Source: a virus (taxonomy: Duplodnaviria > Caudoviricetes). Taken from it: DNA of 64,000 nt. The notes below the pieces were generated by a model that saw only the letters and a list, made by a program, of their open reading frames with translations, made no database searches and was not told where the DNA came from. The DNA is taken from the IMG/VR virus record IMGVR_UViG_3300027747_002427; one strand, written 5' to 3'. Positions 17,356-64,000 of the stretch are shown here, in pieces. The position numbers and the translations under genes were made by a program. Numbering within the stretch: position 1 is the stretch's first letter; every line of letters begins with the position of its first letter.

Positions 17356-18201
17356 TTACTTTAAATCCCTACCTGCGTGAGTAACTGAGACTGCAATTGA
17401 AGAGTGAATAGACTCAAGGTGATTAACGATTACAAGGTAATCCTTAATACGACCATCTAAGTCCTTATCCAACTCAACTGCAACCTTACGAACCATATCT
17501 TCAACGAAGACTGGATTCTCATACATAAGCTCTGTCTGATAAGCCTCATCGACTCTCTTGAGAGCATTAACAATAGGTGCTGAACAGCTACGCTCAACTG
17601 CTGCTACAAGCTCTTCAAACCAATAAACGTCTTTACCTTCTGTACCAGTATGACTAAGCTCAACTGTTACATCTGCATAAGACTGCTGGTTATGAGCTCC
17701 ATAATCACTGATCTCCTTAGAGCAAGGGCAGAGAGAAGCGTAAAGAACATTGGCATGAAGATAAAACTTCTTCTCACCATTGATAAGACGACCCTCAAAA
17801 GAACCCTGATAGTCCATGTGAGACTTGACCTTAGAGACTGGAGCCTCCTTCATCATGAAGTAATCAAACTTGATCTTGATGTAAGCGTTCTGTGATTTCA
17901 GACGATTCTTACACTCATCAAGAAGGATATCCATAACCTCATCAATACGATGAGTCTTATTAGCGAGAACCTCCTCAACTAAGATACGATAGCGACTCAT
18001 ATTTGTACCCTTAACCTCTGGAGTGAGATCTGTGTACATACTAATGATTGCCTTAGTAGGGTTAATGGTTCCGTCTTGTCTAATGATCTCCATTGGAACT
18101 ACAATATTCCTAGAACCAACTTTAGGAATATACTTCTTAGGGAAACCATCCAGAGTATTTTGAATATCTGGAATGTCGTCGTTTGTCTTTATTCTTGGCA
18201 T
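17356..18201 (-). CDS. folE2: GTP cyclohydrolase type IB (FolE2/MptA family)
   Basis: PDIQ, SLCPCSKEISDYGAHNQ, NPVFVEDMVR, NHLESIH motifs; start revised to MPRIKT (18201). Confidence 0.92.
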   Translation of the reverse strand: MPRIKTNDDIPDIQNTLDGFPKKYIPKVGSRNIVVPMEIIRQDGTINPTKAIISMYTDLTPEVKGTNMSRYRILVEEVLANKTHRIDEVMDILLDECKNRLKSQNAYIKIKFDYFMMKEAPVSKVKSHMDYQGSFEGRLINGEKKFYLHANVLYASLCPCSKEISDYGAHNQQSYADVTVELSHTGTEGKDVYWFEELVAAVERSCSAPIVNALKRVDEAYQTELMYENPVFVEDMVRKVAVELDKDLDGRIKDYLVIVNHLESIHSSIAVSVTHAGRDLK

Positions 18202-18229
18202 AATTTTATTTGTTTGTTGTTTAATTGAA

Positions 18230-19093
18230 TTACAGATCTTTGAGAATATCTTGGATACGATCATTTTGATCTGATAGGACTTCGTTATTATCCTCTACAA
18301 CCGAAGAAGATGCAACTGACTTTGTTGTCGTAGGAACAACATAACTCTCTTCTTCTTCAACTGTGTTGGAAACTGGTGATACAATCTCTTCCTCACCAAG
18401 GAAGTGAGTCTTGAGGAGCTTGTTGATATCTTCAACACTCTTATGCTCCATGATGGAATCAAGAGGTTTGAAAGACTTATAAATCTCTTCGATGTCTGAA
18501 GCACCCTCTAAAGGAGCTGGAGATGTAAACTTAGAACTTACATAGGTAGGATAACCACCTTCATTCTGCTCAACCTTAATACGAAGATTGCATCCCTTCT
18601 CTGAAAGATCAAAGATTCTTGATCCGAGATCCTCTGCATCATCACCACTGATAGCATCTGTGATGATCTTAGCAAGCTGCTTGCCATAACGGAGAATCTT
18701 AACTTGACCCTGATTCTCTGGATTAGTTGGATCTTTAATAACGTAAACATTGGCGAGCCAATTCTCATTACGCTTGATTGGAGCAATGCGCTTGATCTCA
18801 GCTTCATTGTTGGTGCGATAGATCTTAGAGCGATACTCATCGATTGGGCAACGCTCTCCGTATGTCGTAGGACAAAGAGTTGAGACGAGTTGGTTAGTAA
18901 CCACACTCTTCCAGAGATGATGGTAGTAGTGATAAAGCGTACGCTCTGGTGCTTCGATGTTAGGAATAAGGCGAACCAAATAGGTATTGCCAATTTCCAA
19001 TTTCATAAAGTCTCTGAAACCACTTTCTGCGGTTGAAGACTTCTTGTTAAGAGCCTCTTTGATAGACTCGAATAGGTTTGTGTTGTATTTCAT
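18230..19093 (-). CDS. Single-stranded DNA-binding protein (T4 gp32-like)
   Basis: YLVRLIPN...YYHHLW...CPTTYGERCPIDE...NVYVIKDPTNPENQGQVKILRYGKQL; acidic C-tail ending DILKDL. Confidence 0.9.
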   Translation of the reverse strand: MKYNTNLFESIKEALNKKSSTAESGFRDFMKLEIGNTYLVRLIPNIEAPERTLYHYYHHLWKSVVTNQLVSTLCPTTYGERCPIDEYRSKIYRTNNEAEIKRIAPIKRNENWLANVYVIKDPTNPENQGQVKILRYGKQLAKIITDAISGDDAEDLGSRIFDLSEKGCNLRIKVEQNEGGYPTYVSSKFTSPAPLEGASDIEEIYKSFKPLDSIMEHKSVEDINKLLKTHFLGEEEIVSPVSNTVEEEESYVVPTTTKSVASSSVVEDNNEVLSDQNDRIQDILKDL

Positions 19094-19141
19094 ATGTTTG
19101 TTTGTTTAGTTTGTATTTGTTTGTTTAATATTATATTGAGT
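19094..19141 (-). promoter_or_regulatory. G-free AAAC-repeat leader of gp32 (candidate autogenous translational operator)
   Basis: Minus strand ...ATATTAAACAAACAAATACAAACTAAACAAACAAACAT-ATG; 48 nt without G. Confidence 0.55.
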
Positions 19142-19792
19142 CGAATGATTTTTCAACTCTTCTATAATAAAATTTTTGATTTTTTTTGTAGCTTCTTTTA
19201 CAAAGCTTTTAGTTTTAGGAGAATTATGATATCTGGTTCTTATAGCATTTAAATTATTAAAAATGTTAGGCGCCCAAATAGCTTGTTCATCCTCGCTCAT
19301 ATTAGAAAGAGAAGATGTATTTCCTAGTTCCATTATACTATAAGGATTAATATTATGCTCCCTATAATGTTGTGTCCAGGCTGGCATTCTTCCAATTTTA
19401 TATGTCAAGTATTGATCCAAGTTGATATTATTTGCAAGGCAGAATACAGCAATAAATCGAAGACTTTCTTTAATTTTATCAAATTGTTTTTCTGGTGACT
19501 GATCTTCTAATTGTTGATGATAGAGGCTATAAGCTCTAATAGCAGCTCTTGTTGTAAAGAATTTAAGAGGAGGACATTTCTCTTCTGGGTGTAATCCGCG
19601 AGGTGCACCAAAGAATTCATCCCATTTAATATGAGGAAATTTAGAGAAGAAGTTATACATTCTTCTTAATAAGACAATATTTTCAGAAGTTATATCTGAA
19701 AAGTCTTTTCTCGGTTGATACGGCAAACCATTACGAAAATGTTTAAGAAAACAATTGTAAATGTCTTGCTCTACTTTATTCAGTTGGTTCAA
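19106..19792 (-). CDS. Hypothetical protein in the gp59 (helicase loader) position
   Basis: TTG start; size and position upstream of gp32 match T4 gene 59, but motif support is weak. Confidence 0.5.
   Translation of the reverse strand: MNQLNKVEQDIYNCFLKHFRNGLPYQPRKDFSDITSENIVLLRRMYNFFSKFPHIKWDEFFGAPRGLHPEEKCPPLKFFTTRAAIRAYSLYHQQLEDQSPEKQFDKIKESLRFIAVFCLANNINLDQYLTYKIGRMPAWTQHYREHNINPYSIMELGNTSSLSNMSEDEQAIWAPNIFNNLNAIRTRYHNSPKTKSFVKEATKKIKNFIIEELKNHSTQYNIKQTNTN
19130..19156 (-). promoter_or_regulatory. sigma70-type promoter TTGAAA-N15-TATAAT (or N17-TAATAT) for gp32
   Basis: Read from reverse complement; -10 box lies 36 nt before the ATG. Confidence 0.55.
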
Positions 19793-20093
19793 TGTCTTTC
19801 TTTTTTTTGTTGAGTTTGGATCGGAAAATCTTTTTATAGATATTAGGCGTACTTCCTAAATAGGCACGCATAATATTTTGGAGACTATAATCACCTAATA
19901 TTGCGAAGTATAATTTTTGTGTCTTTTTATCTTCTATTAAGAATTTAAGGAAATTCAAGTAATTAAATTTCTTGCCCCTAGCTATACAAACGAAAGAAGC
20001 AAATTTCATAGTAATATCTTCAAATTCAGAAAGGTCAAACACATCCGAAGGATTGCTTGTTTCTTCAATTTGTTGTGAAGAGGTTATAATCAT
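19776..20093 (-). CDS. Hypothetical protein
   Basis: ATGA overlap with the DHH gene. Confidence 0.7.
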   Translation of the reverse strand: MIITSSQQIEETSNPSDVFDLSEFEDITMKFASFVCIARGKKFNYLNFLKFLIEDKKTQKLYFAILGDYSLQNIMRAYLGSTPNIYKKIFRSKLNKKKKDIEPTE

Positions 20094-20986
20094 AATGGTT
20101 TTAAATTTTTAGTAACTTCCATAAAGAGGGGAGTTATTTTACCACCAGCAGCATATTCATGCCCTCCACCTTCACAAATTTTCTCAGCGAAAGCTCCTAC
20201 ATCAATAGGATCTTCTTTAGAACATTGTCTTATAGAAACTTTTTCAGTTTTAGTATTTACAAAGAAAAATATATCTGGGGCATATTTTTGAATAAGAAGA
20301 TCCATAACTTGTGGAACTATTCTTTCAACTAAACCGGCACATACTTTCTTTTTCTTATTACCTATATTTATATCTCCCATGAAAATAGGAACCTTGTCTG
20401 CTTCTTGAGAAGCTTCTCTCTTTATAAAATCTACAGCTCTTTTTTGATCTAGAGTAATTTTTTTAAATCCATTACTATAATCTTTAATAAATTCAGAAAA
20501 TTTATTGCGATATTGAGACCAGAAAAGAATATTTAAATCATAAGAATCTGGTATTTGAAGCTTATAAGAATCAAAATCATCTGCTAATGCTATAAGCATC
20601 TTTTGATCTTGAGTTAATTCTGGAGAAGATTCCATGAATAATTTTCTCATTAATAAAGCATTAGACGAATATTCTTTATATAATACTTTAGCTTTTTTAA
20701 ATTTGTTTACAAATCTTTCTGAAGACTTATGGTGATCTATAAAAGTAACATTTTCTTTATCTAAAAAAGGTAAAAATTCATCTCTTAAAGCTAAATCTAA
20801 AACAAAAGTAGTAGGGTTATTGTGAGTATTAGCAAAATGTTCTTTAATTTTAGTTTCTATTTCTAAGTTATTTAAAGGAAAATAATGAAATGTGGCATCT
20901 GGTCTAGCCCACATTAATGTTAGAAGACTTACAGCGCCGTCTAAATCATTGTGTGTAAACACATGGTAACATTTTGACATATTCAT
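20090..20986 (-). CDS. DHH-family phosphoesterase
   Basis: FTHNDLDG, VLDLA, IDHH, DDFD, GGGHEYAAG. Confidence 0.9.
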   Translation of the reverse strand: MNMSKCYHVFTHNDLDGAVSLLTLMWARPDATFHYFPLNNLEIETKIKEHFANTHNNPTTFVLDLALRDEFLPFLDKENVTFIDHHKSSERFVNKFKKAKVLYKEYSSNALLMRKLFMESSPELTQDQKMLIALADDFDSYKLQIPDSYDLNILFWSQYRNKFSEFIKDYSNGFKKITLDQKRAVDFIKREASQEADKVPIFMGDINIGNKKKKVCAGLVERIVPQVMDLLIQKYAPDIFFFVNTKTEKVSIRQCSKEDPIDVGAFAEKICEGGGHEYAAGGKITPLFMEVTKNLKPL

Positions 20987-21010
20987 TATTTAATACCATG
21001 TTACTAACTA

Positions 21011-22399
21011 TCACCCCTCATCATCTAAATTCTCTATAAGATTGAGCGTATCAGCTATACTTTGAATGCCAGTACTAATGGATCCAGGTATGGTTCTTCT
21101 TTGAGAATTAAAAGACTGAGCTACACTATCCGGATCTCTAAGCGTAAGAGTAGGATAATCAATTTCTAATACTGTATGACATTCTCTCGGGCCAAAACGA
21201 TTTTTTGTAATACCTAAATGAATAATACCTAATTCAAAATCTTCTTCTTCTGTCCAAATAGAAAATTGAGCGTCTGCCGTATGAGCAAGTCCCATAGACT
21301 CTGATACGGTTTCTAATCCTGGATTATTCTGATCATAAGCTGATCTATTAGCCTGAGTAGCAGAAATTACTGGACATGAAAAGTGATAAGACAACGCTCT
21401 AATTAATTCTGTTATCTGTTTAATAGCTTCGTATGAATTGGTTCCTCTCTCTGGAGGGGCTACAAGATTAAGATAATCTAATACAATAGCATCTGGTTTC
21501 ACGCCTTTCTTTACTAATCTATCCAAGTAAGCTTTAATCTGAATGGGTGTAACGGATTTAGGAGGAAACTCTTTAATAATAAGTTTCGCATCTTGATGTC
21601 TTAATTTATATGCATTGAGAGAATCTTTAAGAGGGTCTATCTGCATAGGTAAATCGTTCATAGCTATGCGAGACAATGAAGAGCTAATACGTTTTGCATA
21701 AACTTGCTCTGCCATTTCCAAAGTGATTAGGACAACGGTTTTATTCTGACTAAGAATATTTGTAGCTATGTTTCCTAAGAAGATAGATTTACCAACATTA
21801 GTAACACCATAAAATACATATAGTGCTCTACCTTCTGCCATAAAACCACCGCCAATCTTATCATCCAACCATTTCCATCCTGATGGAATAGTTTTGAAAA
21901 CCTTTTGAAGATCTTCACAATGCGCATCAACGGACTCTAGATAATCTAATCCGTAATTTTCTACTAAAGAAATACTACAAGCCTTTTCAAAGTCTTCTAG
22001 AATTTGAGAAGAATTAATTTGACCCGACTGAACATCAATAGATGTTTTAAGAACTGTATTATATACAGCTTTCTCTTTAAGAAATCTTTCTGTATTCTTT
22101 AATAAGACTTCTTTATCGTAATTTTTATCAATATCACTGAAGCTTAAAGCTACATTTCTAAGAGCATCTCGTTTTTCCTGTTCTACAAGATGAACTTTAA
22201 GCTCTGTAATATTAGGAACTTTATTATAAGCTGTATAATAGGTTCCTAAAGCTTCAAATACTGTTCTAATATTTTTGTTTTCAAAATAAGAAGGCTTTGC
22301 ATGTTCTATGATACTTTCCAAATAAATTGGATCCATCAAAGAATTGTAAATTACAATCTTTTCAAAAAGACTAGAATCAATAGGTAAAGCTTTAATCAC
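21011..22399 (-). CDS. Replicative helicase (gp41/DnaB-like)
   Basis: YGVTNVGKS Walker A, ITLEMAE, VLDYLNL, SATQANR, KNRFG; GTG start. Confidence 0.93.
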   Translation of the reverse strand: MIKALPIDSSLFEKIVIYNSLMDPIYLESIIEHAKPSYFENKNIRTVFEALGTYYTAYNKVPNITELKVHLVEQEKRDALRNVALSFSDIDKNYDKEVLLKNTERFLKEKAVYNTVLKTSIDVQSGQINSSQILEDFEKACSISLVENYGLDYLESVDAHCEDLQKVFKTIPSGWKWLDDKIGGGFMAEGRALYVFYGVTNVGKSIFLGNIATNILSQNKTVVLITLEMAEQVYAKRISSSLSRIAMNDLPMQIDPLKDSLNAYKLRHQDAKLIIKEFPPKSVTPIQIKAYLDRLVKKGVKPDAIVLDYLNLVAPPERGTNSYEAIKQITELIRALSYHFSCPVISATQANRSAYDQNNPGLETVSESMGLAHTADAQFSIWTEEEDFELGIIHLGITKNRFGPRECHTVLEIDYPTLTLRDPDSVAQSFNSQRRTIPGSISTGIQSIADTLNLIENLDDEG

Positions 22400-22405
22400 T
22401 CAAAT

Positions 22406-22433
22406 ATAATAGTTAAAAAAGAAAATAAAGCAA
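22406..22433 (-). promoter_or_regulatory. sigma70-type promoter TTGCTT-N16-TATTAT, 6 nt before GTG
   Basis: Read from reverse complement. Confidence 0.55.
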
Positions 22434-22435
22434 TC

Positions 22436-22621
22436 TTATTTGCGACCCCAACTCGTATTATCAAATAAACCTGAAAATCCGTTAGTAGGTTGATTACCTA
22501 CTTGAGCGGGTCTCGGTACTGGAGGATTAATAATTTTTGCAATTTCTTGTATTTCTACATCGTCTTGTAATCTGTGTGGAGGCAGATTGTTTAATATATC
22601 TTTTAGTTGTTGATATGTCAT
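22436..22621 (-). CDS. Small hypothetical protein
   Basis: Fills the gap between queD and the helicase promoter. Confidence 0.6.
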   Translation of the reverse strand: MTYQQLKDILNNLPPHRLQDDVEIQEIAKIINPPVPRPAQVGNQPTNGFSGLFDNTSWGRK

Positions 22622-22624
22622 AAA

Positions 22625-23140
22625 TTATACTCCCGGTCTTTTAGAAATAAGATTAGGATTTCCTAATCCATTATAGGTAACAGATTGTACGGTTACTGGT
22701 TTTGGTTTTTCATAAAGAGCTGAATTATTTTCATGCTCAAATACTTCAACCTTTTCTACCCAGCAACGATCACCATATACTGAATTAATATATTCTTGGG
22801 TTGTATTAAAACACCATTCTGCTGTTCTTTCAATACCAACACCCTTAGGCATGATACGAAGAACACAAGCACCTAATTGATCAAGTTCTTTAAACTTTTC
22901 CAAATGAGGATCATCTGCTGCAATACAAAGAGTATGATCAAATTGATCATTAAGAATTTTCTTAAGATCTTTAAGACCTCCAAAATCTACAACCCAATTC
23001 TTTTCATCTAATTCTTTACAACCAAACCAGAATTTAGCTTTGAGTTGATACCCGTGAAGATATTGACAATGACTATGCTTTGCACCATATTGACGAAAAG
23101 CACAAGAACCTAATTCAATTATCTTTGTTGATGTATACAT
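22625..23140 (-). CDS. queD: 6-carboxy-5,6,7,8-tetrahydropterin synthase
   Basis: SCAFRQ..SHCQYLHGY...WVVDFGGLK...FDHTL...VFEHENNSA; start revised to MYTSTK. Confidence 0.9.
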   Translation of the reverse strand: MYTSTKIIELGSCAFRQYGAKHSHCQYLHGYQLKAKFWFGCKELDEKNWVVDFGGLKDLKKILNDQFDHTLCIAADDPHLEKFKELDQLGACVLRIMPKGVGIERTAEWCFNTTQEYINSVYGDRCWVEKVEVFEHENNSALYEKPKPVTVQSVTYNGLGNPNLISKRPGV

Positions 23141-23141
23141 A

Positions 23142-24317
23142 TTAATTTTCTTCCTCTTCTGATTCAATTGAAGTATAAACTAATTCTGGCTTCTCTACAA
23201 CAACTTCTTCTTCAATTAAAGAGTCATTATTGAAACAAAGTTTGGTCTTCAATTTCTCTTCTAATGCTGGAAGAATCTTGTTCCATACATTGATGTCTGT
23301 TTTCCAATCCTTAAAGAATCCTAAGACCTCACCATTAAAAGTATGACGATGTCCGGCTTTTTCAAGAACCTCATAACCTTCACACATCTCAAGTAATCCA
23401 GAATACTTGTTAAGACCAGTGCGGAAATTAAGATACATTTCTGTCTCAAGATAAGGAGGTACAAAACGATTCTTTGTAGTAAGGGCTCGAAGTGTTAAAC
23501 CATTGATATCTTTTGATAAAGGTGTAACATCGGTGTTAGAATCCTTATTCTTACTATCACTTGATCTCTCTGCTTTCTTAGCCATCTGAACGATAACCGA
23601 AGCCATATAAAGAGGGCCTGAACCACCAGCCTGCTTCTTAATAGCTGAAGGATGAAGCTGGGATGGATCTTCGTAAATATGATTAGTAAAGATAACTGGA
23701 CAATTAGCTTTTGCAGCTGAATGGGTAATAGCTCTCATCATACTCTTCAAAGCCTTTGCTCTATTTCCCATGTCTGGTGTATCACTACCTTCATCGATCT
23801 TTTTCTTTTCTTGAGTAGTAATAAGATTACCTAGAGAGTCAATAACAATTAAAACCTTGCCGTGCAATTTATTTGCTATAACTGTATCAAGAAATTTAAC
23901 AATTTGATTGCGACAAGACTCTGTAATCTCTGTAGGTATATGCTTAATCTTAGAAGGATCACAACCAAGTCTAGCTGCTGTAGCTTCATCTAATGCTCCT
24001 TCTGTGTCGAAATATGCAATATGCATACCCTTCTTTTGAGCATTAGCCATAACCTTATTACACATTAATGTCTTACCACAAGATTCTGGTCCAATAAATC
24101 CTGTAAGTCTTCCCATAGGGACACCACCATAGATAGAACCGGATATAATAGCATTTAATGCCATTGATCCTGTATCGATCCAATCCTTAACCGTAGATAA
24201 ACTATTTTCATCTAGATAAGCTGCTTCTGGATTTAAATCTTCTAAAATCTTAAAAGCGTCTTGAATAGATCCACTTGTTTCTTCTACTTCTTCTGTATTT
24301 TTCTTTTTGTATGCCAT
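23142..24317 (-). CDS. uvsX: UvsX/RecA-like recombinase
   Basis: IDTGSMALNAIISG, GPESCGKT, FDTEGA, IDSLGNL, FTNH, GGSG; start revised to MAYKKK. Confidence 0.92.
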   Translation of the reverse strand: MAYKKKNTEEVEETSGSIQDAFKILEDLNPEAAYLDENSLSTVKDWIDTGSMALNAIISGSIYGGVPMGRLTGFIGPESCGKTLMCNKVMANAQKKGMHIAYFDTEGALDEATAARLGCDPSKIKHIPTEITESCRNQIVKFLDTVIANKLHGKVLIVIDSLGNLITTQEKKKIDEGSDTPDMGNRAKALKSMMRAITHSAAKANCPVIFTNHIYEDPSQLHPSAIKKQAGGSGPLYMASVIVQMAKKAERSSDSKNKDSNTDVTPLSKDINGLTLRALTTKNRFVPPYLETEMYLNFRTGLNKYSGLLEMCEGYEVLEKAGHRHTFNGEVLGFFKDWKTDINVWNKILPALEEKLKTKLCFNNDSLIEEEVVVEKPELVYTSIESEEEEN

Positions 24318-24324
24318 ATAAAAT

Positions 24325-24352
24325 ATTATAACAAAAAACCTCAGAAAGTCAA
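24325..24352 (-). promoter_or_regulatory. sigma70-type promoter TTGACT-N16-TATAAT, 7 nt before uvsX ATG
   Basis: Near-consensus; read from reverse complement. Confidence 0.75.
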
Positions 24353-24370
24353 TTGACAATCTGAGGTTTT
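24333..24370 (-). terminator. Intrinsic terminator hairpin (AAAACCTCAGA-N14-TCTGAGGTTTT plus U-tract)
   Basis: 11-bp perfect inverted repeat followed by 6 T on the minus strand, 27 nt after the stop of 24398-24784. Confidence 0.75.
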
Positions 24371-24397
24371 CCTGGTTTCTTTTGATCAGATTACGAT

Positions 24398-24784
24398 TTA
24401 CTCATCAAAAAGATTAATTACACTACTGTTAGTACCACCTGATGCTGGAGCGGATGGCGGGACAAAAACATTGCTCTTGTTGAACATCTGGCTATACTGA
24501 GCACTCAAGCGAAAATCAATAGCTTCAATGTCAGTTTCTGTGATACTATCCTTCTTATAAGAAAAGATAACGTCGCCAGTCTTGTCGGGCAAAAATTCTC
24601 TAAAAAAGATTGGAAGTAATTGAACTGACATTCTTCCGTTCTGATCTTGAGGAACTACGTTAAGAACAACTGGGTTCTTAAGTGCCAAGATTGTGTCGTT
24701 TGTCTTGTCTGCTACGACTTCACCTAAAATGGTGCGGCCTACAGTATCAAGGATGGTTGTTAGGGTTGTTGTTGTTTCGCTCAT
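24398..24784 (-). CDS. Hypothetical protein (small beta-rich, possibly Sm-like)
   Basis: Has its own promoter and terminator. Confidence 0.75.
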   Translation of the reverse strand: MSETTTTLTTILDTVGRTILGEVVADKTNDTILALKNPVVLNVVPQDQNGRMSVQLLPIFFREFLPDKTGDVIFSYKKDSITETDIEAIDFRLSAQYSQMFNKSNVFVPPSAPASGGTNSSVINLFDE

Positions 24785-24792
24785 AAAAATAT

Positions 24793-24820
24793 ATTATATC
24801 GAATCTTGCTCATTAGGCAA
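24793..24820 (-). promoter_or_regulatory. sigma70-type promoter TTGCCT-N16-TATAAT, 8 nt before ATG 24784
   Basis: Read from reverse complement. Confidence 0.65.
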
Positions 24821-25465
24821 CTCCGATTTCCAATTTAATGCTTCTGAAATATTAGGAAATATTTCAACAAAAGTATCTTTAATAGCTAGAGCTATTTCTC
24901 GATGTTCCTTTTGTGTATCTTCTTTTGTTCTTAAATCAATATAATGTACCCAGCTTCTTACATTACCACTCATATACATTGTAGTCTGAGTGCATTGAGG
25001 TAAAACCATTCTAGCACATTCCTTTGCTGCTCCCTTTTCTAAAAGATTTTCATAAAGAGTGGCTCCAGCTACAAGATATTGCTTTATAGCTTCTGTGCTT
25101 TCTTCATTTAAATCTAGAAGATCTGTACTTGATTGCCTATTCTTTTCGGCTTGTTTTCTGATTTCAAAAGATTCAAAGTCTGTAATATTGCTATATCTTT
25201 GACTAAACTCTTGGAAAGAAAAACTACGGTGCCTTAAAATTTGTGCTGCAATAGCTCTTGAAGTCTTAATTTCAAAAGTCATACTAACCATTTCAAAGGG
25301 ACTCCAGTGTTTATGGTCTATTAAATATTTTAATAATTTAGGAGCTGTTTGTGTATTAGCTTGATTAGACGGATTAGACACCCGTGCACAATAACTAATA
25401 AAATCTTCTGGGGATAATATCCCCTCAATTACTGGTTCTGTGATGCTTACTATTTTTACTTGCAT
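24794..25465 (-). CDS. thyX: Flavin-dependent thymidylate synthase
   Basis: HWSPFE, QILRHRSFSFQEFSQRY, ARMVLP, RSWVHYIDLR, TQKEHR. Confidence 0.95.
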   Translation of the reverse strand: MQVKIVSITEPVIEGILSPEDFISYCARVSNPSNQANTQTAPKLLKYLIDHKHWSPFEMVSMTFEIKTSRAIAAQILRHRSFSFQEFSQRYSNITDFESFEIRKQAEKNRQSSTDLLDLNEESTEAIKQYLVAGATLYENLLEKGAAKECARMVLPQCTQTTMYMSGNVRSWVHYIDLRTKEDTQKEHREIALAIKDTFVEIFPNISEALNWKSELPNEQDSI

Positions 25466-26325
25466 AAAATATTCTCCTTAAAGAAATTAATATTCTCTTC
25501 TACACATTCTAATTGCATATCTGATACTTTTTTGTCAAAAATATCTACCATTTTTTCTACAATTTTATGTTCTAAATTAACTGCATATTCATAACTCTTA
25601 AGATTATAACCCATTAATACTGGATGAGATGTATCTATAGTCTCAATAAAAGAATAAAGATCTCCTGTATAATTTATAAATTCTGTAGGTAATCCACAAC
25701 CTAATAAATGATGGGATTTTGTATAATCTATAACCCCATCATCAATTAATTGTTTCAATAGCTTGGGTCTAAATGTAGCAAATGCTGTTGGTTTCCATAC
25801 TTCTTTAATTCTTTTTTCATTGTTTTTGGAATTATAAAGCAATGCTAAATCAAAATCATTCTTTGCATTTTCTAAAGCTTGCTGCCAATAATAGTCATAT
25901 CCAAAGCTAATTGCTATCTTATCTGCATGTTGTGACATGAATAAATAGGAATCTTTTAATTCCTGGTAATTTTTTCCCTGGACAACTCCTATGCGTTTGC
26001 CTCTTGCAGAATGTGTATCAAATTTACCTAGGAACTCTTCAAAACTTTTAATATTGGCTTCATAATCTTGAAATACATCAGGAATTATATACTCATCTGG
26101 CTCTAATTGCAGAACCCAATTAAAAAATAACTCATGATTATAAGCTTCACCAAGCTCATAAAGACTATTATCTAAAATAATTTTGCGTCCCATTTCTTTA
26201 GATTCAAAGAAAAAGTCTCTATATTCTTCACTTTCCTCTAGAAGATGAACTAAAGCATAGTCATAATCCGTTAAAGAACGGACTTCTTTCATTATTTGTA
26301 ATGGTGCTTCGTGTGCTACTAACAT
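25456..26325 (-). CDS. TGT-fold (DpdA-like) base-exchange enzyme, putative DNA 7-deazaguanine transglycosylase
   Basis: TIM-barrel pattern IILDNS..ELG / IIPDV / IGVVQG / HLLGCG / IDTSHPV aligns with TGT DSGG, QG, LMGVG and FDCV motifs; folE2/queD/queE nearby. Confidence 0.65.
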   Translation of the reverse strand: MLVAHEAPLQIMKEVRSLTDYDYALVHLLEESEEYRDFFFESKEMGRKIILDNSLYELGEAYNHELFFNWVLQLEPDEYIIPDVFQDYEANIKSFEEFLGKFDTHSARGKRIGVVQGKNYQELKDSYLFMSQHADKIAISFGYDYYWQQALENAKNDFDLALLYNSKNNEKRIKEVWKPTAFATFRPKLLKQLIDDGVIDYTKSHHLLGCGLPTEFINYTGDLYSFIETIDTSHPVLMGYNLKSYEYAVNLEHKIVEKMVDIFDKKVSDMQLECVEENINFFKENILCK

Positions 26326-26335
26326 AATTTTGTAA

Positions 26336-26363
26336 ATTATATACTATAAACCTAACAAATCAA
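26336..26363 (-). promoter_or_regulatory. sigma70-type promoter TTGATT-N16-TATAAT, 10 nt before ATG 26325
   Basis: Read from reverse complement. Confidence 0.65.
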
Positions 26364-28920
26364 ATAGATCTGTCTGTGTTTCTGCTCCCATTGTAGGTAA
26401 ATCCCATCCAATACAGTCATAAACTCTCTGAATTGGTGGAGATACTATCTTGTCAAACATGACTTGGTGGTTAATTTTAATATGCTCATTGAGTTCTACA
26501 GGATAGTGATCCATAAATGCCATGACCTTATAGTTAAAAGGGTTTTTAGCCGCATAGAAATATTTCATCTTCATACCACTTGGAATAGATTCGTACAAAT
26601 GATCTATTCCATAATGTTTTAATAGATTGTTATAATGTATTGCTGCCTTAGCATGAATAGGTGTACCCTTACCAATCTTACCATCCTTATCTATTTTAGC
26701 TTCTTGTTTTTCTATATCTGAAATTTTACTTCTGATAGCAAGTTCTTCTGCTTTCATTTCTTTGAAACTTTCATAAGCCTCTCTAAAGATTTCATTAGAC
26801 TTCTTTTTATCTTCTGAAAGCATTGCAAGTTCAATTACATTTTTAATTAAACCTTTAACTTCATTAGAAATAGATGAGCGTGCTACTTCTACACCGACAT
26901 ATTTAAATGGATCTTTTGGAGTATAACCTTCTTTATCTAGAATATGAAGAATATATCTTTTCTTTTCCATGAACAATCCTACATCACAAATAGTCTCTTG
27001 CTTGAAAACAAATCGTGGATCTGATGATTTTAATTGTTCTCTAGCCCAAACAAGAATTTCTGTATTAAGATAATTGTCAATTTCTTTGGTTACATTTCTT
27101 GCTTCTTCTGTTAGTTTACCATCTTTAACCAAATCAATACCTAAATGAGTAAGAACTGGTTGAATAGAAAAATATGCTGAGTCTGTATCACCATAAAGAT
27201 ATATCTTTTCCTTTTCTACTTTACATCCTTTCTTAATTGCATAATCATAAACAATCTCTGCTGCTTGTTTAACTACAGACTGACCGGTCAATGTAATACT
27301 AGCGGAGTGGTCTATGTCAAAAAGAGGGGAATACTTTTGTGCAAATACTCCATAGATAGAATTCAATACAAGCTTATAAACATTCTGTTGAGTATCTAAA
27401 TTAAGAATCTCTTGTTCTATCTTATCCTTTTCTTTCTTATCTTTAATGGATGGTAAAGATTTCTCTCTTTTAATCATTTCATTCTTTGCATCAACACGCT
27501 CTTTATACAAGCGATCAATGAGGTTAGGAATGACTCCTTTAAACTTTTGTGTATACAATACGTTATATTTGGATATTGAAAGATTTTCTTTTTGGACAAG
27601 CTTATTAAACTTCTCTTCTGAAAGAGTTACAGTCTTCTCATTAGCCAATTTTATAGTGTATTGCTTGTCTTCAATAGTAGATATTTTACCTATTTTTGTC
27701 TCAGGAGATATATTAAGAGTAATAATAGTATTAGGATATAGACTGTTTGCATCATAACTAACAACAGACTTACTTAACCCTCTCTCTGGCTCGTGGACGT
27801 AACCTCCTACATATTCATCTCTTACGCCATCGTTCTTAAATGTAGGAATAACATAACCTTGAATAGCTGCTTGATGTGCTACAGCTCCGGTAATCATAGA
27901 TACCTTACCCATAGCTTGTTCAAAAGGAATGAATCCTTTGTAAGAAAGTGTTCTTACAAGCTTTATAAATTTGAGCTTCTCATCCAACTTAACAAGAATT
28001 CTTACGTCTTGTATATTATAGTCTACAAATTTACTCCAATCTTCTACAGATAATTGAGCCAGGTTGGATACCCCGGTGTCAATCTTTCCTTCTTTTAATT
28101 CATATTCTCCTACATAATTCAAAGAATAAGATTCACGTTCTCCTCTTGAAAAGGTTTTATAAACCTCCATATAATCAATGTTACTAACACCTCGGATATA
28201 CCAACGATTGATCATCTTGCCGAATTTATTCATGGCTACATTCTCTCTATAATAAAGAGAATTAACTGGTGAAAGCCTCGCAGCATCTTCTTCACCAAAA
28301 AGATTATGAAGACGATTCATAATATAAGGAATATCAAATCCTTCACCATTCCAAGTACTAAGAATATCTGGAGGATCCTTCTCCCAGAATTCTATAAATC
28401 CTTTAAGCATTGCTGTCTCTGTAGGATAATAAAAATAAGTTACATCTTTATCCGTAGGAGTATAAGGCTTGATACCAAAAGAATAATATTTTTGCTTTAT
28501 ACTATCATAAAGAGTAATAAGATTAATAGGATCTTTAGCTAATTCTGGAACTGGAAACTCATTTGGTGAATAGGTTTCAATATCCAAAAAGTAAACCTTA
28601 AGTGGATTTAAACCAAAGTCTATCTTATTGACATCATCTTTATATGTAGACAATAAGAAATCTTGTTCGCAACTAAGATTATGAAATAATCTTTTTATAG
28701 GAGTCTCATTAACAAATTTACTTCTATCAAACTGATTTTTAAATTTAACCTTCTTTAATGGTGTGTTAAAGATCGAAGTAGCATCATGAGCTGAAGAAGA
28801 CTCAATATACAAATGAGGCTCATAATCAGCCACAAGCTTAATCCTATTACCATTCTCATCCCACGTCCAGAGATGAATGACTCCTTGTCTTCCATCATAG
28901 AAAATATTTCTCCACGCCAT
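26344..28920 (-). CDS. polB: Family B DNA polymerase (gp43-like), no intein
   Basis: ExoI DIETYS, ExoII WNGEGFDIPY, ExoIII YNIQD; pol motifs YDANSLYP, KLVLNSIYG, YGDTDS. Confidence 0.97.
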   Translation of the reverse strand: MAWRNIFYDGRQGVIHLWTWDENGNRIKLVADYEPHLYIESSSAHDATSIFNTPLKKVKFKNQFDRSKFVNETPIKRLFHNLSCEQDFLLSTYKDDVNKIDFGLNPLKVYFLDIETYSPNEFPVPELAKDPINLITLYDSIKQKYYSFGIKPYTPTDKDVTYFYYPTETAMLKGFIEFWEKDPPDILSTWNGEGFDIPYIMNRLHNLFGEEDAARLSPVNSLYYRENVAMNKFGKMINRWYIRGVSNIDYMEVYKTFSRGERESYSLNYVGEYELKEGKIDTGVSNLAQLSVEDWSKFVDYNIQDVRILVKLDEKLKFIKLVRTLSYKGFIPFEQAMGKVSMITGAVAHQAAIQGYVIPTFKNDGVRDEYVGGYVHEPERGLSKSVVSYDANSLYPNTIITLNISPETKIGKISTIEDKQYTIKLANEKTVTLSEEKFNKLVQKENLSISKYNVLYTQKFKGVIPNLIDRLYKERVDAKNEMIKREKSLPSIKDKKEKDKIEQEILNLDTQQNVYKLVLNSIYGVFAQKYSPLFDIDHSASITLTGQSVVKQAAEIVYDYAIKKGCKVEKEKIYLYGDTDSAYFSIQPVLTHLGIDLVKDGKLTEEARNVTKEIDNYLNTEILVWAREQLKSSDPRFVFKQETICDVGLFMEKKRYILHILDKEGYTPKDPFKYVGVEVARSSISNEVKGLIKNVIELAMLSEDKKKSNEIFREAYESFKEMKAEELAIRSKISDIEKQEAKIDKDGKIGKGTPIHAKAAIHYNNLLKHYGIDHLYESIPSGMKMKYFYAAKNPFNYKVMAFMDHYPVELNEHIKINHQVMFDKIVSPPIQRVYDCIGWDLPTMGAETQTDLFDLLGL

Positions 28921-28928
28921 ATTAAGAT

Positions 28929-28955
28929 ATTATACTACCTTAATACCATTTTCAA
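28929..28955 (-). promoter_or_regulatory. sigma70-type promoter TTGAAA-N15-TATAAT (or N17-TAATAT), 6-8 nt before polB ATG
   Basis: Read from reverse complement. Confidence 0.55.
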
Positions 28956-29466
28956 TAAATTCTTTTACTTCTTCATCTATAATAGGATTACCTTCATGGA
29001 GAATATCTGAAACGGTTTTATACAAATCAAAAGCTTTACGCTCAAAGAAATTTGTAGCTTTCTCAAATCCTAATGTATCAATCCAACAATTCATTTGAGG
29101 ATATTGAGGAGCAGCATGAAAGATACACCCATTATGAAAATTACCAATCCAACAAAGAAGAAAGATAGCTCCCTTAAGCTCTTTATCTTTAACCATATAT
29201 TCAAAGAAAACTGCTCTTTCTTCTGGAGCCTTGCCTACATAACGATTTAATTTAGTAATGTATTCTCCATCTAAAAAGATAATAGAACGACCTTTGGATG
29301 TTGTATGATCCTTTAATGCTTTGACATTATTATCATTCATATAGACCTTACGCAAGGTAGGCCATTTTACATTTACACCCCTCGTAGAAAAGAATGGCGA
29401 CTCCTGTAAAGGCTGTCGATTCATTGATACTTTTTTATTTTGACGAAGGTCTAATGTATTACTCAT
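28930..29466 (-). CDS. Hypothetical protein
   Basis: 178-aa ORF with its own promoter. Confidence 0.7.
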   Translation of the reverse strand: MSNTLDLRQNKKVSMNRQPLQESPFFSTRGVNVKWPTLRKVYMNDNNVKALKDHTTSKGRSIIFLDGEYITKLNRYVGKAPEERAVFFEYMVKDKELKGAIFLLCWIGNFHNGCIFHAAPQYPQMNCWIDTLGFEKATNFFERKAFDLYKTVSDILHEGNPIIDEEVKEFIENGIKVV

Positions 29467-29472
29467 ACATTA

Positions 29473-29501
29473 ATAGTATGATATAATAAGAGGAAAACCA
29501 A
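29473..29501 (-). promoter_or_regulatory. sigma70-type promoter TTGGTT-N17-TACTAT, 6 nt before ATG 29466
   Basis: Read from reverse complement. Confidence 0.5.
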
Positions 29502-29509
29502 GAAAAATC

Positions 29510-30826
29510 TTACACCTTTTGATCCAAATTATTAGCAATCAATATAGGACTCTTTTTATTTCTCTCTTCTGAACCCCATTCTGTAAAGTATAAAGCCTCA
29601 TATTCATCTAAGTGATCTTCTAACCAAAGACCCTCAGCAAATTTACGACCCTTATCTGAAAGGTTCATATAACGATCAAAATCTGAAGTAATGTATTCTA
29701 ATTGTTGAATAAGATCTGATCCATTTTTAAAGCTAATATCTGCACCTTCATAAGTGCAAATATCTTGGAAAACTCCTGGCATACCAAATGCTCCTGCTTC
29801 AATCATCTTAATATTACTCTTAGACTTATTAAATACATTATCTTGTAAAGCTGCAAATGATACATTGCACTTAGCATCATAGATACCTTGTGGATAATCT
29901 GGAAGAGCTGACCAATCAATGTATTCCATTTCTCCATTATCAATATATGGCTTCAAAGCTAATGGATAACATCCTTTCCAAACAAATTTAAATTTCTTAC
30001 GAGCCTTGATGATTTCCTGTACTACATGAGCAAAATCATCATTCATTCCTGTTCTATTGATTACATCAATGTGAGTGCCAGACCCAGCATAAAGAACTCT
30101 AGGACGCTTTTTGTTCTTTTCGTAAAGATCAATAACGTGTTGTTTATTATAAAATCTATCAAGCCAAGACTTAGGAGCATAATTTGGAATAACTGTAATC
30201 TTTTTATTACCTGTCTTATTGATGTAATAATCTTTCATGTATTGGCATGTGACGGTTATTTCATCCATCATTTCCATAATACCCAATATACTCTTAACAA
30301 TACTTTCATCTACAAATGCATCTTTGCATCTATTATAATCTGGGATATCATCTTTAAAAACAATATCATCCACTTCATAAAGCAAACGGAATCCCATTTC
30401 TTTACTAGCCTTTTTAAGTTCTGTAATAAACTGCTTCTGCATTGGCGTAGCCTGTCTTTGCATTCTAATAGCTTTAATGCCTTGATAAAAACGAATATCC
30501 ATTACCATGCATGTCAAACCGGAAATACAAGCTTTTTGATATTGATTCAAAGCAAATTCTGGCCAAATCATTCTCCAGAAACCACAACCACCGTAATCTG
30601 CATAGTAGTTTAAAGCTCTTGGTAAACTGGTTTCTGGCATCTCTAATGGTGGTGGTCCAGGAACCTGTACTGGATTAATAGCTACATAAGAGTATGAAGG
30701 CATTCCAGGAGGAAGAGCTGGTGGATTGTGAGGGAAGCCACCATTAATAGCTTTATATTCAAACACAATTTTATTTTTAGTGTCTATAGGTTGAGAGATC
30801 TCTGGAGTCTTTATTTTTAAAGCCAT
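29510..30826 (-). CDS. GT-B fold glycosyltransferase with Pro-rich N-terminus
   Basis: GCGFWRMIWP, YEVDDIVF, VTCQYMKDYY..VIPNY, VLYAGSGTH, FNKSKSNIKMIEAGAFG. Confidence 0.8.
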   Translation of the reverse strand: MALKIKTPEISQPIDTKNKIVFEYKAINGGFPHNPPALPPGMPSYSYVAINPVQVPGPPPLEMPETSLPRALNYYADYGGCGFWRMIWPEFALNQYQKACISGLTCMVMDIRFYQGIKAIRMQRQATPMQKQFITELKKASKEMGFRLLYEVDDIVFKDDIPDYNRCKDAFVDESIVKSILGIMEMMDEITVTCQYMKDYYINKTGNKKITVIPNYAPKSWLDRFYNKQHVIDLYEKNKKRPRVLYAGSGTHIDVINRTGMNDDFAHVVQEIIKARKKFKFVWKGCYPLALKPYIDNGEMEYIDWSALPDYPQGIYDAKCNVSFAALQDNVFNKSKSNIKMIEAGAFGMPGVFQDICTYEGADISFKNGSDLIQQLEYITSDFDRYMNLSDKGRKFAEGLWLEDHLDEYEALYFTEWGSEERNKKSPILIANNLDQKV

Positions 30827-30859
30827 ATATTAAATTTATAAACTATTGTTAAAAGGCAA

Positions 30860-31630
30860 TTAAACTTTAAGAGCTTTGTTCCAAATTAACAATTGTAATC
30901 TTGGGCTAAAATTAACATGCATTGCCTTAGCATACTCTGCTACTGCTGGTGCTCTTTCTACGTGCTCTTCTCTAGAACCACAGCAAGGCATAAACCAAAT
31001 GCGATTAAGTGGTATATTAATACCATTGTTATCTTTAACATATTTCTCCCAAATCTCTTCAATGTCTTCTGCAACATTAATAACAAACTTAAATCCTGAT
31101 CCATTGCTTACATGCCATTTAAGAACTTCTGGCTTGTAAGTCTTATCTTCAGGATCACCATTTGAACGAAGCTTGGGAGATGTAGTAAATGTAGCCCCAA
31201 AAGCTTTCCACTCTGGAGCTGGTGTTAGTGTAGCATTAGTTTCAAAATCTATGCGAGGCACAATTTCATATCTCGCTATAAAGGATCTAATAAATTTGAT
31301 TAATTGATTTTGCTGAATAAGAGGTTCTCCTCCTGTAAGCTTTAGAATTGCTCCATTACGAAGATGTTCTATATAGTTATTATCTTCCATAAGTTGGAAG
31401 ATTTCTGCAAATGTCATCTTATTCTTTACAGACCAAGAAATAAATGAATCACATCCGTTAGGTGAATCTTCAGAAGCAAAACCAATGCATGTAAGATTAC
31501 ACATAGACATACGCATAAAGACCGAAGGTACGCCTACATATTCTCCTTCTCCTTCTATGGTATAAAATACTTTATCATCTGATAGGAATAAGGTTTCTTG
31601 GTTAATGTCAATTAAAGAATTCATTGTCAT
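30860..31630 (-). CDS. queE: 7-carboxy-7-deazaguanine synthase (radical SAM)
   Basis: FYTIEGEGEYVGVPSVFMRMSMCNLTC...CDS, LTGGEPL, FETNAT, SPKL, KFVI, FSPRLQLLIW. Confidence 0.9.
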   Translation of the reverse strand: MTMNSLIDINQETLFLSDDKVFYTIEGEGEYVGVPSVFMRMSMCNLTCIGFASEDSPNGCDSFISWSVKNKMTFAEIFQLMEDNNYIEHLRNGAILKLTGGEPLIQQNQLIKFIRSFIARYEIVPRIDFETNATLTPAPEWKAFGATFTTSPKLRSNGDPEDKTYKPEVLKWHVSNGSGFKFVINVAEDIEEIWEKYVKDNNGINIPLNRIWFMPCCGSREEHVERAPAVAEYAKAMHVNFSPRLQLLIWNKALKV

Positions 31631-31643: not shown

Positions 31644-33455
31644 TTAAACTAACATCAACCTTGTTTTACCATTTATCTTTTCTAATTGAATGATGTTATC
31701 TAACCCGTTCTTGATAACGGATTTGTTGTGAGAGACTATATAAACACTTTCGTCATAGTCTTCAACTCTTGTTTTTAAAATTTCCAATATCTTTTCTGCT
31801 CCCTTCTCATCTACTGCAGAATCTAATAATTCATCATACATACTAAGAGAAAAGGATGTCCCGGTTTGTGTTCTTAATACATCTTGAAACATAAAGAGAA
31901 TAGCTAAATCAATTCTTTTACGCTCTCCTCCACTAAAATTAAAATATGAACATTCTTTGCCTTGATCATTGTATATGGATTCTTCAAATATCTCATTAAA
32001 TTCACACTTACAAGGAGCTTCTAGAATTTGTAAATAATGATTAAGTCTAGAATTTAAAAGATTTAACATCTTTTTAATAATGTATGTCTTTACACCTTCT
32101 TCCGAAACAACATATTTGGCTGTATCTAAAATGGTTAATTTCTTTTGTATTACTTGTATTTGTTTTTCAGATTCTAAAATTTCAGTTTCTACATTATCTA
32201 TAAGCTCCAATACACCATCTTTTTCATTTCTTAGAGTGGAGATTTCTTCAAGAATTTCTACATTTCTTTTTTCTAATTGGCTCAATTCTTGTATAGCAAG
32301 AGCTAAATCACCCTTATCTTTATTGAGAGCCTTTATTTTTTGTTTAGTAGATGTAATAGCTGATTCTACTTTGGTTTCTTTTTTATTTAAATCTTCTAGA
32401 ATCTTTCTCAAAGGTTCTTTTTTATCTTGAAGGGGTATTAATTTATCTTCTATTTCTTTTAAACAATCTTCTAAATTAGCATTTTCATCATACTTTCTTT
32501 TACAAGTAGGACAAGATGAATCTGTTTTTAATTTTTCTTTTTGCTTTTCTAAAGTTTTAGATTCATAATTAATTTGTAAAAGTTCTGTATTAGTATCAGA
32601 AGCAGACTTTTTAACCTTCTTTAAGCCCTCTTCAAGAGCTTCGAGATCAGATTCTTTGCTCTGTATCTCTTTGTCCAAATCATTAATTCTTCCATTCACT
32701 GAATCTTGATTCGATACATTTTTAATCTTTTGGTTATTAGCTTCTATTTTATCTTTTAAAGCTAATATTTTATTATTTTTAACTTCTTCATTTTTATCTG
32801 CTTGGCTCTTATATAGTTTTAAATTTCTTTGTTGATCTATAAATTTAGATCCAATTATATCATTTTCTTTTTTAATATCATTATAATCTGATCTTGCCTG
32901 TAAAAGCATTTGACCAAAAATACCTAAATTTAAAATACCTTCTACAAATTTTCTTTTGTCTACCTTCTTTTGTGCCATGAAAGGTAAGGTATTATTAGCT
33001 GTCATAATGACCGCATTTTGAAATACCTCTTCATTAGCTCCTATTAATTCTTTGATATATTCATTGGTCTCAGGCATTGTTGAGTGCGTCATGTCTACAT
33101 CTTTTTGATCAACATGAGAAAATACACTCACTTTACTTGGTTCTAATGATCTCTTAATAGTATAAGGAATAGTTTGACTGCCATTAAAAATATTAAAACT
33201 TAAAATCACTTCACAACCTTTTTTAGTTTGATGGTGTATAATTTTATCTTTTTTAATATCTCTCATGGTGACTCCAAATAAACACCAATATAAAGATTCA
33301 ATCACAGTGCTTTTACCTACACCATTACGACCTCCCTTATCACGATTTTCTCCAGTAATAAGGTTAACACCTTTTTGAAAAGATATCTCTAGAGGATCTT
33401 CTCCTACGGAAAGAAAATTTTGTATTTTGACACTATTAAAAATAACGCTTCTCAT
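31644..33455 (-). CDS. SMC-like recombination nuclease ATPase (gp46/SbcC)
   Basis: GRNGVGKST, coiled coil with CPTC hook, FSGGE, YDELLD. Confidence 0.95.
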   Translation of the reverse strand: MRSVIFNSVKIQNFLSVGEDPLEISFQKGVNLITGENRDKGGRNGVGKSTVIESLYWCLFGVTMRDIKKDKIIHHQTKKGCEVILSFNIFNGSQTIPYTIKRSLEPSKVSVFSHVDQKDVDMTHSTMPETNEYIKELIGANEEVFQNAVIMTANNTLPFMAQKKVDKRKFVEGILNLGIFGQMLLQARSDYNDIKKENDIIGSKFIDQQRNLKLYKSQADKNEEVKNNKILALKDKIEANNQKIKNVSNQDSVNGRINDLDKEIQSKESDLEALEEGLKKVKKSASDTNTELLQINYESKTLEKQKEKLKTDSSCPTCKRKYDENANLEDCLKEIEDKLIPLQDKKEPLRKILEDLNKKETKVESAITSTKQKIKALNKDKGDLALAIQELSQLEKRNVEILEEISTLRNEKDGVLELIDNVETEILESEKQIQVIQKKLTILDTAKYVVSEEGVKTYIIKKMLNLLNSRLNHYLQILEAPCKCEFNEIFEESIYNDQGKECSYFNFSGGERKRIDLAILFMFQDVLRTQTGTSFSLSMYDELLDSAVDEKGAEKILEILKTRVEDYDESVYIVSHNKSVIKNGLDNIIQLEKINGKTRLMLV

Positions 33456-34363
33456 TTATTTTCTAAAATCCAATTTTTAACATCTATGGTAGGTTTGTAA
33501 TTTAAATATTTTTGAGCTTCTGTTATATCAGCTAATGTATGTTCTGCTTCACCAGCTCTTGCTGGAATATATTCAATATTATTATCGATAAGTCTAGCTA
33601 TATCTTTTATTGATATATTTTGACCGGTTCCTATATTGTAAAGATTTCTACCTTCATGGGTTTCTGTCTCTGCTGCTAATATATTAACGTTTGCTATATC
33701 ATATACATGAACAAAATCTCTACATTGTTCTCCATTTCCTACTATTGTTAAAGGTTCTTTATTAGCTTTCTGACGTAAAAATATTCCTATAACCGGAGCA
33801 TAAGGACCTGTTCGAGGACTTCTTTCACCGAAAACATTAAAGTAACGAAATACAATTGTTTTCAATCCAAACATTTTTGTATACATTTCTACCATTTGTT
33901 CTCCGGAATATTTTGTAGCAGAATAAGGATTTAAACAATCTATTGGTTCGTTTTCATCTGTAGGTAATTTACATAAATTACCATAAACTGAGGATGTAGA
34001 TGAATATATAAACTTCTCTATATTGTATAATCTACTATATTGAAGCATCTTAGTAGTGCCAACAGCATTTATTTCTACAGCTCTTATTGGATTAAGAATA
34101 GCTGGTCCTATTCTAGACTCAGCTGCAAGATGAAAAACATATTTTACATTTTCAAAAATCTCTTTATGAGGCAAAGAATCATCATTGATATCAAATTTGT
34201 AATATGTTGCTAAATTATTAAAGTAAAATTTTTCATTAGACTCTGCTGAAAGATTGTCTATAACAAGAACTTCATAACCCTTTTCCAGGAGTTTATCTAC
34301 TAAATGACTTCCTATAAAGCCGCATCCTCCGGTTACTACTACTTTATTTTTTAAATTGCTCAT
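33452..34363 (-). CDS. NAD-dependent nucleotide-sugar epimerase/dehydratase
   Basis: TGGCGFIGS, SSTSSVYG, YSATK, RYFNVFG. Confidence 0.93.
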   Translation of the reverse strand: MSNLKNKVVVTGGCGFIGSHLVDKLLEKGYEVLVIDNLSAESNEKFYFNNLATYYKFDINDDSLPHKEIFENVKYVFHLAAESRIGPAILNPIRAVEINAVGTTKMLQYSRLYNIEKFIYSSTSSVYGNLCKLPTDENEPIDCLNPYSATKYSGEQMVEMYTKMFGLKTIVFRYFNVFGERSPRTGPYAPVIGIFLRQKANKEPLTIVGNGEQCRDFVHVYDIANVNILAAETETHEGRNLYNIGTGQNISIKDIARLIDNNIEYIPARAGEAEHTLADITEAQKYLNYKPTIDVKNWILENK

Positions 34364-35075: not shown

Positions 35076-35076
35076 A

Positions 35077-38040: not shown

Positions 38041-38041
38041 A

Positions 38042-38710: not shown

Positions 38711-38717
38711 ATTATAT

Positions 38718-62341: not shown

Positions 62342-62342
62342 G

Positions 62343-63998: not shown

Positions 63999-64000
63999 TG

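Follow-up and report, generated by a model that had tools for sequence, protein, structure and literature searches.

The 64,000-nucleotide stretch of DNA analysed here (the window; IMG/VR record IMGVR_UViG_3300027747_002427) comes from an uncultured freshwater T4-like phage with a genome of ~200 kb (about 203 kb), and it likely (with a probability of about 0.8) holds four genes of a DpdA3-type 7-deazaguanine DNA-modification system, namely folE2, queD, queE and dpdA3; the queC gene of the system lies outside the window, and the product would be exchanged as a base into the phage DNA. Replacement of guanine by 7-deazaguanine in phage DNA is a known anti-restriction strategy. An earlier reading of the window (the original prediction) is partly supported: it interpreted the system and the class of enzyme correctly, whereas the product it proposed, a base derived from 7-carboxy-7-deazaguanine (CDG), is not supported.

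The DpdA3-type enzyme and its precursor genes

The putative transglycosylase is a 289-amino-acid (aa) protein encoded between thyX and the gene for a family B DNA polymerase (polB). The four genes of the system and these two neighbours are:

17356-18264, minus strand: FolE2 (GTP cyclohydrolase IB); Pfam PF02649 (GCHY-1), E 4.5e-65, and NCBIfam NF010200
22625-23167, minus strand: QueD (6-carboxytetrahydropterin synthase), phage type; Pfam PTPS, 4.9e-17, and phrog_2389 QueD-like, 1.6e-35
24794-25465, minus strand: ThyX, a context gene with no role in the pathway, translationally coupled to dpdA3; Pfam Thy1, 3e-53
25456-26325, minus strand: DpdA3-type DNA guanine transglycosylase, 289 aa; by tblastn, fold and motifs
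26344-28920, minus strand: family B DNA polymerase (T4 gp43-like), a context gene upstream of dpdA3; Pfam DNA_pol_B, 1.2e-27, and exonuclease domain, 3.9e-22
30860-31630, minus strand: QueE (7-carboxy-7-deazaguanine synthase, radical SAM), phage type; phrog_2076 QueE-like, 2e-39, and Pfam Fer4_12, 7.2e-5

Family matches, fold and the positions of the open reading frames (ORFs) bear out the four pathway genes where the original prediction had placed them. The 289-aa ORF has no match in Pfam or NCBIfam; used for tblastn against 50,697 phage records it matches 26, the best being the protein annotated 'DNA guanine transglycosylase' in Flavobacterium phage immuto (7e-52, 41% identical over 97% of the query), followed by the Campylobacter phages CP220, CP21 and CPt10 at ~38% (CP220 38.5%, 2e-38; the group ~1e-38), with coverage of 93-97% for CP220 and immuto. 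In the reciprocal search the DpdA3 proteins of immuto and CP220 find this ORF as their sole match in the window. Similarity to the DpdA3 of phage phiST is weak, at 1e-3 for the window protein and 5e-6 for its orthologue in G002, the closest long relative (IMG/VR, 176.8 kb, 82% complete), which is collinear with the window and has a DpdA3 79% identical; the founding members compared are CP220 APL47_gp056, immuto26A_65 and phiST CGPG_00065. The published DpdA3 subfamily is made up of phiST CGPG_00065 and the CP220 and immuto proteins (Nucleic Acids Res 2023, PMC10516641), and the 289-aa protein belongs to it on the strength of sequence similarity, a short fold of ~260-290 aa like that of tRNA-guanine transglycosylase (TGT), the Asp pair and co-encoded precursor genes. 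The label 'divergent TGT' in the original prediction was right in that the enzyme is a phage DpdA; it undersells a member of a named subfamily. Homologues of the window protein number 1,388 at E<=0.001, and no Pfam domain is assigned to any of them.

An AlphaFold (AF2) model of the protein, built from 42 homologues, is a TGT-like TIM barrel with a pLDDT of 94.4 and a pTM of 0.91. Among the 50 Foldseek matches listed against the PDB, all are tRNA-guanine transglycosylases (E ~1e-7); in a comparison with viral models the phiST DpdA3 (M4SLA5) scores TM 0.80/0.88 with E 1e-18. VIA-align gives Z 17.1 to Z. mobilis TGT over 231 residues with a root-mean-square deviation (rmsd) of 3.2 A; for DpdA, the bacterial enzyme that inserts preQ0 into DNA (PDB 7ui4), Z is 16.8. 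When the DpdA3 alignment was used as a profile against PDB sequences, bacterial DpdA came up only at E ~1, so the relationship needed a fold search to be seen. Residues D52 (IILDNS) and D231 (IDTS) are invariant in the alignment of 42 homologues; their equivalence to D102/D280 of Z. mobilis rests on motif context (LDNS and IDTS, with LLGCG ~20 residues upstream), for which support from hhalign is partial, as the comparison with E. coli Tgt is weak overall (E 0.009) and pairs IGVVQG with FGIIQG and KSHHLLGCGLP with KPRYLMGVGKP. The protein has three cysteines (C210, C274 and C288) and no CxCxxC, and there is no conserved cysteine cluster in the 42-sequence alignment; the TGT Zn subdomain is therefore missing. 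The original description of a TIM barrel that keeps both Asp positions and has no obvious Zn-binding CxCxxC is thus confirmed by the confident model, the TGT matches and the invariant aspartates. The protein departs from canonical TGTs in having neither a Pfam or NCBIfam match nor the Zn-binding CxCxxC...H, and PF01702 finds nothing in G002 or in G008, another relative (99% complete, DpdA3 43% identical). In a maximum-likelihood DpdA/TGT tree, a placement that the original prediction had proposed, the window DpdA3 falls in an uncharacterised environmental subclade (support 93/88) apart from the immuto subclade and the CP220 group; phiST, the DpdA1 of phage 9g and E. coli TGT form long branches.

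FolE2 scores 209.1 bits against NCBIfam NF010200, slightly below the cut-off of 215, and is kept in the relatives G002 and G008, in neither of which a type-IA FolE is found. The original claim that a type IB cyclohydrolase takes the place of FolE holds on these results and the PF02649 match; judged by sequence, FolE2 is the unusual member of the set and would stand in for FolE. Its homologues among the 50,697 phage genomes are three records, all dubious. QueD probably starts at the ATG at 23140 (MYTST...); it shares 43-45% identity with its counterparts in phiST and immuto, and its motif HCQYLHGY follows the same pattern as their HCxFLHGY (CxxxHGY), with Y in place of H at the third motif position in all three phage proteins. 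The gene was also considered as DpdL (the proposed CDG decarboxylase) and rejected for lack of the LxxxHRHxF motif, which appears as LNHRHLF in phiST DpdL. QueE matches five NCBIfam QueE models at 1e-7 to 1e-11, all under the cut-off, and has the invariant cysteines C44, C48 and C60 in a pattern common to the QueEs of phiST and immuto.

From these assignments a route can be proposed in which FolE2 would convert GTP to dihydroneopterin triphosphate (H2NTP), QueD would convert H2NTP to 6-carboxytetrahydropterin (CPH4), and QueE would convert CPH4 to CDG. QueC, encoded elsewhere in the genome, is predicted to turn CDG into preQ0, or at the least into the amide ADG, possibly with the help of a stand-alone class-II glutamine amidotransferase (GATase); the latter may feed ammonia to QueC or turn the preQ0 nitrile into the amidine G+. 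DpdA3 would then swap guanine in phage DNA for the deazaguanine base by the double-Asp mechanism of TGT, with D52 and D231 and a covalent Asp-ribosyl intermediate as in TGT, probably after replication, and DNA modified in this way would be protected from restriction and other DNA-targeting defences. By analogy with the characterised members of its subfamily, DpdA3 is a candidate inserter of 7-deazaguanine with complete or near-complete replacement, and probably all of the G, at or near 100%, is replaced.

QueC beyond the window and the candidate final base

The original prediction saw no queC in the window, and this is correct: no scanned ORF matches Pfam QueC, and six-frame tblastn of the window with the genome's own QueC gives nothing at E<0.01. 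The gene is found in G002, 42 kb from dpdA, and every sufficiently long relative has it at ~42 kb from dpdA. In G002 it opens a cassette ordered QueC, a GT2-like glycosyltransferase, a 217-aa class-II (N-terminal nucleophile, MCGIYG...) GATase and DUF366, near primase and portal genes; by projection of this synteny queC would lie ~8-10 kb past position 64000 of the window.

L065:4852-7454 (the window's genome, outside the window) and G002:C1:106651-109235: QueC/GT2-like/GATase/DUF366 cassette; by synteny

For the exact window DpdA3 (P0002), the QueC (P0248) and the exact DUF366 protein beside it (P0259) alike, the longest contig measures 202,941 bp. Run SRR5754827, in which the window's exact 677-aa protein is found, contains QueC P0248 too, and a QueC contig (L054, 99% identical) and a DpdA3 contig (G001, 99% identical) share one sample; queC is very likely present in the genome of the window's phage. 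A gene missing from the window is thus not a gene missing from the genome. The protein passes the NCBIfam equivalog TIGR00364 with 176.8 bits against a cut-off of 150.3, while the QueC* of CP220, a proposed ADG synthase, falls below it with 139.5 bits. In P0248 the PP-loop SGGLDS (SGGxDS) and the four Zn cysteines (C...CxxCxxC) are intact, and the substrate loop reads SGHWDCS against the canonical SGYPDCR. The original prediction had made a CDG-derived product depend on the absence of queC throughout the genome; a QueC beyond the window that scores above the equivalog cut-off runs counter to that premise, and with this QueC on a contig of 202,941 bp and no DpdL the proposed product is not supported.

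The cassette is kept in all relatives, down to 63% QueC identity, and DUF366 is the most conserved of its four genes (71-88%). DUF366 is not counted as a member of the pathway, as in more distant T4-like phages, where it is 54% identical, it keeps its slot upstream of the genes for the helicase, gp15 and the portal but has thyX and sugar genes for neighbours and neither QueC nor GATase; it may be a resident neighbour rather than a pathway enzyme. Its only sequence match in the PDB is the hypothetical protein 2ddz, a fold model from a 7-sequence alignment reaches a pLDDT of 44 with no usable fold, a scan of IMG/VR with a DUF366 profile finds the same clade only, and a literature search for DUF366 returned only papers on DUF3669.

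The branch enzymes QueF, DpdL and DpdN are not found in the window, G002, G008 or L065; searches for DpdL, DpdN and a QueF of the immuto type covered the window, G002 and L065, and in G002 and G008 no QueF scores above the cut-off. A QueF match in the relative G003 (14.5 bits, below threshold) is treated as probable noise. The route of phiST (to dDG) and that of immuto (to preQ1 derivatives) are therefore excluded, which points to preQ0 or a base made from it; the product is probably dPreQ0 or dG+, with dADG less likely. We infer for the final base about three chances in ten for each of dPreQ0 and dG+, about one in four for some other base, and for dADG roughly half the weight of either leader. 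In the three characterised DpdA3 phages G is completely replaced, by dADG in CP220, by dDG in phiST and by fdPreQ1 in immuto (PMC10516641).

Other readings concern the point at which the pathway ends and the molecule on which the transglycosylase acts. A phage whose pathway ends with CDG or with a base derived from it (dCDG, dDG or a new adduct), with QueC absent or not a preQ0 synthase and DpdA3 inserting CDG or DG, would fit the 64-kb window without queC and the altered substrate loop of the genome's QueC, and the DpdA3 phage phiST does work this way, via DpdL (PMC10516641); against this, a QueC above the equivalog cut-off is present on the contig of matching length and in all long relatives, there is no DpdL homologue in the window, G002 or L065, and the sole T-fold protein has the QueD motif and not that of DpdL, which makes such a stop very improbable. 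It is also doubtful, if less so, that the system makes dADG as in Campylobacter phage CP220, in which case the variant QueC, drawing its nitrogen from the amidotransferase, would stop at the amide and DpdA3 would install ADG. In CP220 a QueC homologue accompanies DpdA3 and dADG replaces 100% of G (PMC10516641), the loop of the window genome's QueC departs from the canonical one, and a dedicated amidotransferase would suit amide formation; however, CP220 QueC* combines a canonical FPDCR loop with a score under the cut-off that the window genome's QueC exceeds, the two proteins are only 31% identical, and the window DpdA3 does not group with that of CP220 in the tree.

The TGT-like enzyme might instead act on nucleotides, supplying deaza-dGMP or deaza-dGTP to PolB before replication, or on host or phage tRNA, rather than on finished DNA. 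The dpdA3 gene stands between thyX and polB in the window and beside thymidylate kinase and NTP pyrophosphohydrolase genes in CP220 and immuto, the ADG nucleoside has been reported in the cytoplasm of infected cells (PMC10516641), and 100% replacement would be easier to explain if it took place before replication; this is improbable, however, as the current literature has post-replicative insertion for all DpdAs (PMC10516641), the window has no tRNA genes, and the closest solved relatives act on polynucleotides. A bolder proposal, and a long shot, is that the clade consists of phages that make a 7-deazaguanine new to DNA, or dG+ by a new route that starts from the Zn-independent FolE2 and uses a split GATase and variant QueC, with DpdA3, encoded between thyX and polB, replacing all G at the nucleotide level before replication.

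Several points weigh against insertion of a preQ0-derived base into DNA by the DpdA3 system as proposed here. The QueC loop SGHWDCS suggests that the product of QueC could differ, and between the GATase and the Gat domain of phage 9g no similarity is detectable apart from the class-II N-terminal motifs MCG(I/S)(Y/F)G and HNG. The link from the window to queC is indirect, through longest contigs of the same size, co-occurrence in samples and synteny. The window DpdA3 lies in a separate, uncharacterised subclade, and phylogeny therefore does not tell its substrate; E. coli assays of DpdA3 enzymes were tried and are reported to have failed (PMC10516641), and which base is made, how much of the G it replaces and whether the substrate is DNA, nucleotide or tRNA are all deduced from the genes.

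Genomic setting

The window has a GC content of ~30%, with genes for a T4-type large terminase and for baseplate spike proteins in its left part. A long replication and recombination array runs on the minus strand from ~50.4 kb down to 14.5 kb and comprises gp32, a DnaB-type helicase, a UvsX/RecA-like protein, ThyX, the family B polymerase, a Rad50-like ATPase, a Mre11-like phosphoesterase, a UvsW-like helicase and UvsY; folE2, queD, queE and dpdA3 are interleaved within it, all on the same strand. The dpdA3 ORF shares 10 nt with the start of thyX and follows the stop of polB at a distance of 18 nt; it is therefore expressed within the replisome operon. A SegE-type GIY-YIG homing endonuclease gene (4.4e-31) at 50723-51157 on the plus strand directly follows the array. 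Two further genes lie between polB and queE:

28930-29466, minus strand: 178-aa protein without a family
29510-30826, minus strand: glycosyltransferase-like protein, 438 aa; phrog_7162 glycosyltransferase, 1.3e-20

The glycosyltransferase is kept in synteny in G002; it has just 3 weak homologues among the 50,697 phage records, and none in any known deazaguanine phage of that set. A role in DNA modification, for example in decorating the modified base, is possible but unsupported.

A sugar/glycan island of 13.5 kb (33452-46926, minus strand) separates the Rad50-like gene (gp46-like, 31644-33455) from the Mre11-like gene (gp47-like, 46923-47975), which in T4 are adjacent. It encodes an NAD epimerase/dehydratase, a cytidylyltransferase-like protein, a GHMP kinase, a transaldolase and an SIS isomerase, which make up a heptose-type nucleotide-sugar route, together with two methyltransferases, GT1, GT25, GT10 (fucosyltransferase) and GT47 enzymes, a nucleotide-diphospho-sugar transferase and GT2/TAGT-like enzymes; the island is variable, since G002 has no DNA similarity over 33456-45368. 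At the right end, three large ORFs (671, 677 and >551 aa) with no Pfam match occupy 58244-64000 on the minus strand, and the public contigs of this lineage all end within the tail-fibre-like gene at 62343-64000. The last segment, 63337-64000, is 97% identical to G006, an otherwise unrelated phage of 199.9 kb; G006 and G007, which carry an exact 41-mer from the window end, were ruled out as relatives, as they share just this ~660-bp segment. The region 58244-64000 looks like a hypervariable, horizontally exchanged tail-fibre-like module. It is adjoined by a sulfotransferase gene (Sulfotransfer_3, 1.6e-9) at 57418-58242 on the plus strand, which has 81% DNA identity in G002.

Comparison with known systems

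To our knowledge, DpdA3 is the only DpdA subfamily that replaces every G in a genome; we know of no reconstitution of a DpdA3 in vitro, and of characterised phages from three hosts only. The family is now found in a large and abundant clade of uncultured freshwater T4-like phages whose precursor pathway has another make-up: FolE2, a variant QueC and an amidotransferase encoded separately. This adds to the enzymes known for deazapurine DNA and makes these phages candidates for new bases. A warning also follows: G replacement may affect metagenomic reads of these phages, or their analysis by restriction or nanopore.

Bacterial TGTs (Z. mobilis and E. coli) and the DpdA of 7ui4 share with the window protein the TIM barrel (Z 16.8-17.1 over ~230 residues), both Asp positions and the QG and LxGxG motifs; however, identity is 11-16%, and the window protein, ~80-120 residues shorter, has neither a Pfam TGT match nor the C-terminal Zn subdomain. 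Phage 9g, which has DpdA1, FolE, QueD, QueE plus Gat-QueC and replaces ~25% of its G with dG+, resembles the window genome in combining a class-II GATase function with QueC and in having no QueF, and a 9g-like route to the amidine base G+ is possible by analogy. In 9g, however, Gat is fused to QueC, while in the window genome a glycosyltransferase gene stands between separate genes for the two; by BLASTP the 9g Gat-QueC matches the window genome's QueC (27% identity, 3e-17) and reaches the 218-aa GATase at E 0.34, with no detectable similarity between the Gat parts. The DpdA1 of 9g is also longer and replaces part of the G only.

The closest likeness is to the DpdA3 phages CP220, immuto and phiST, which have the same minimal TGT-fold enzyme of 260-290 aa without a Zn subdomain; the phage-type QueD (CxxxHGY) and QueE are shared with phiST and immuto, and the genes of DpdA3 phages likewise lie among those for nucleotide metabolism and replication. 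The window genome differs from them in lacking the QueF and DpdN of immuto, the DpdL of phiST and a QueC* of the CP220 type. It has FolE2, which is absent from all three, and a QueC with a variant loop in the same cassette as a stand-alone class-II amidotransferase; its DpdA3 belongs to a separate, uncharacterised subclade, and the genes of the system are split over two loci ~45 kb apart in a T4-like genome of ~200 kb.

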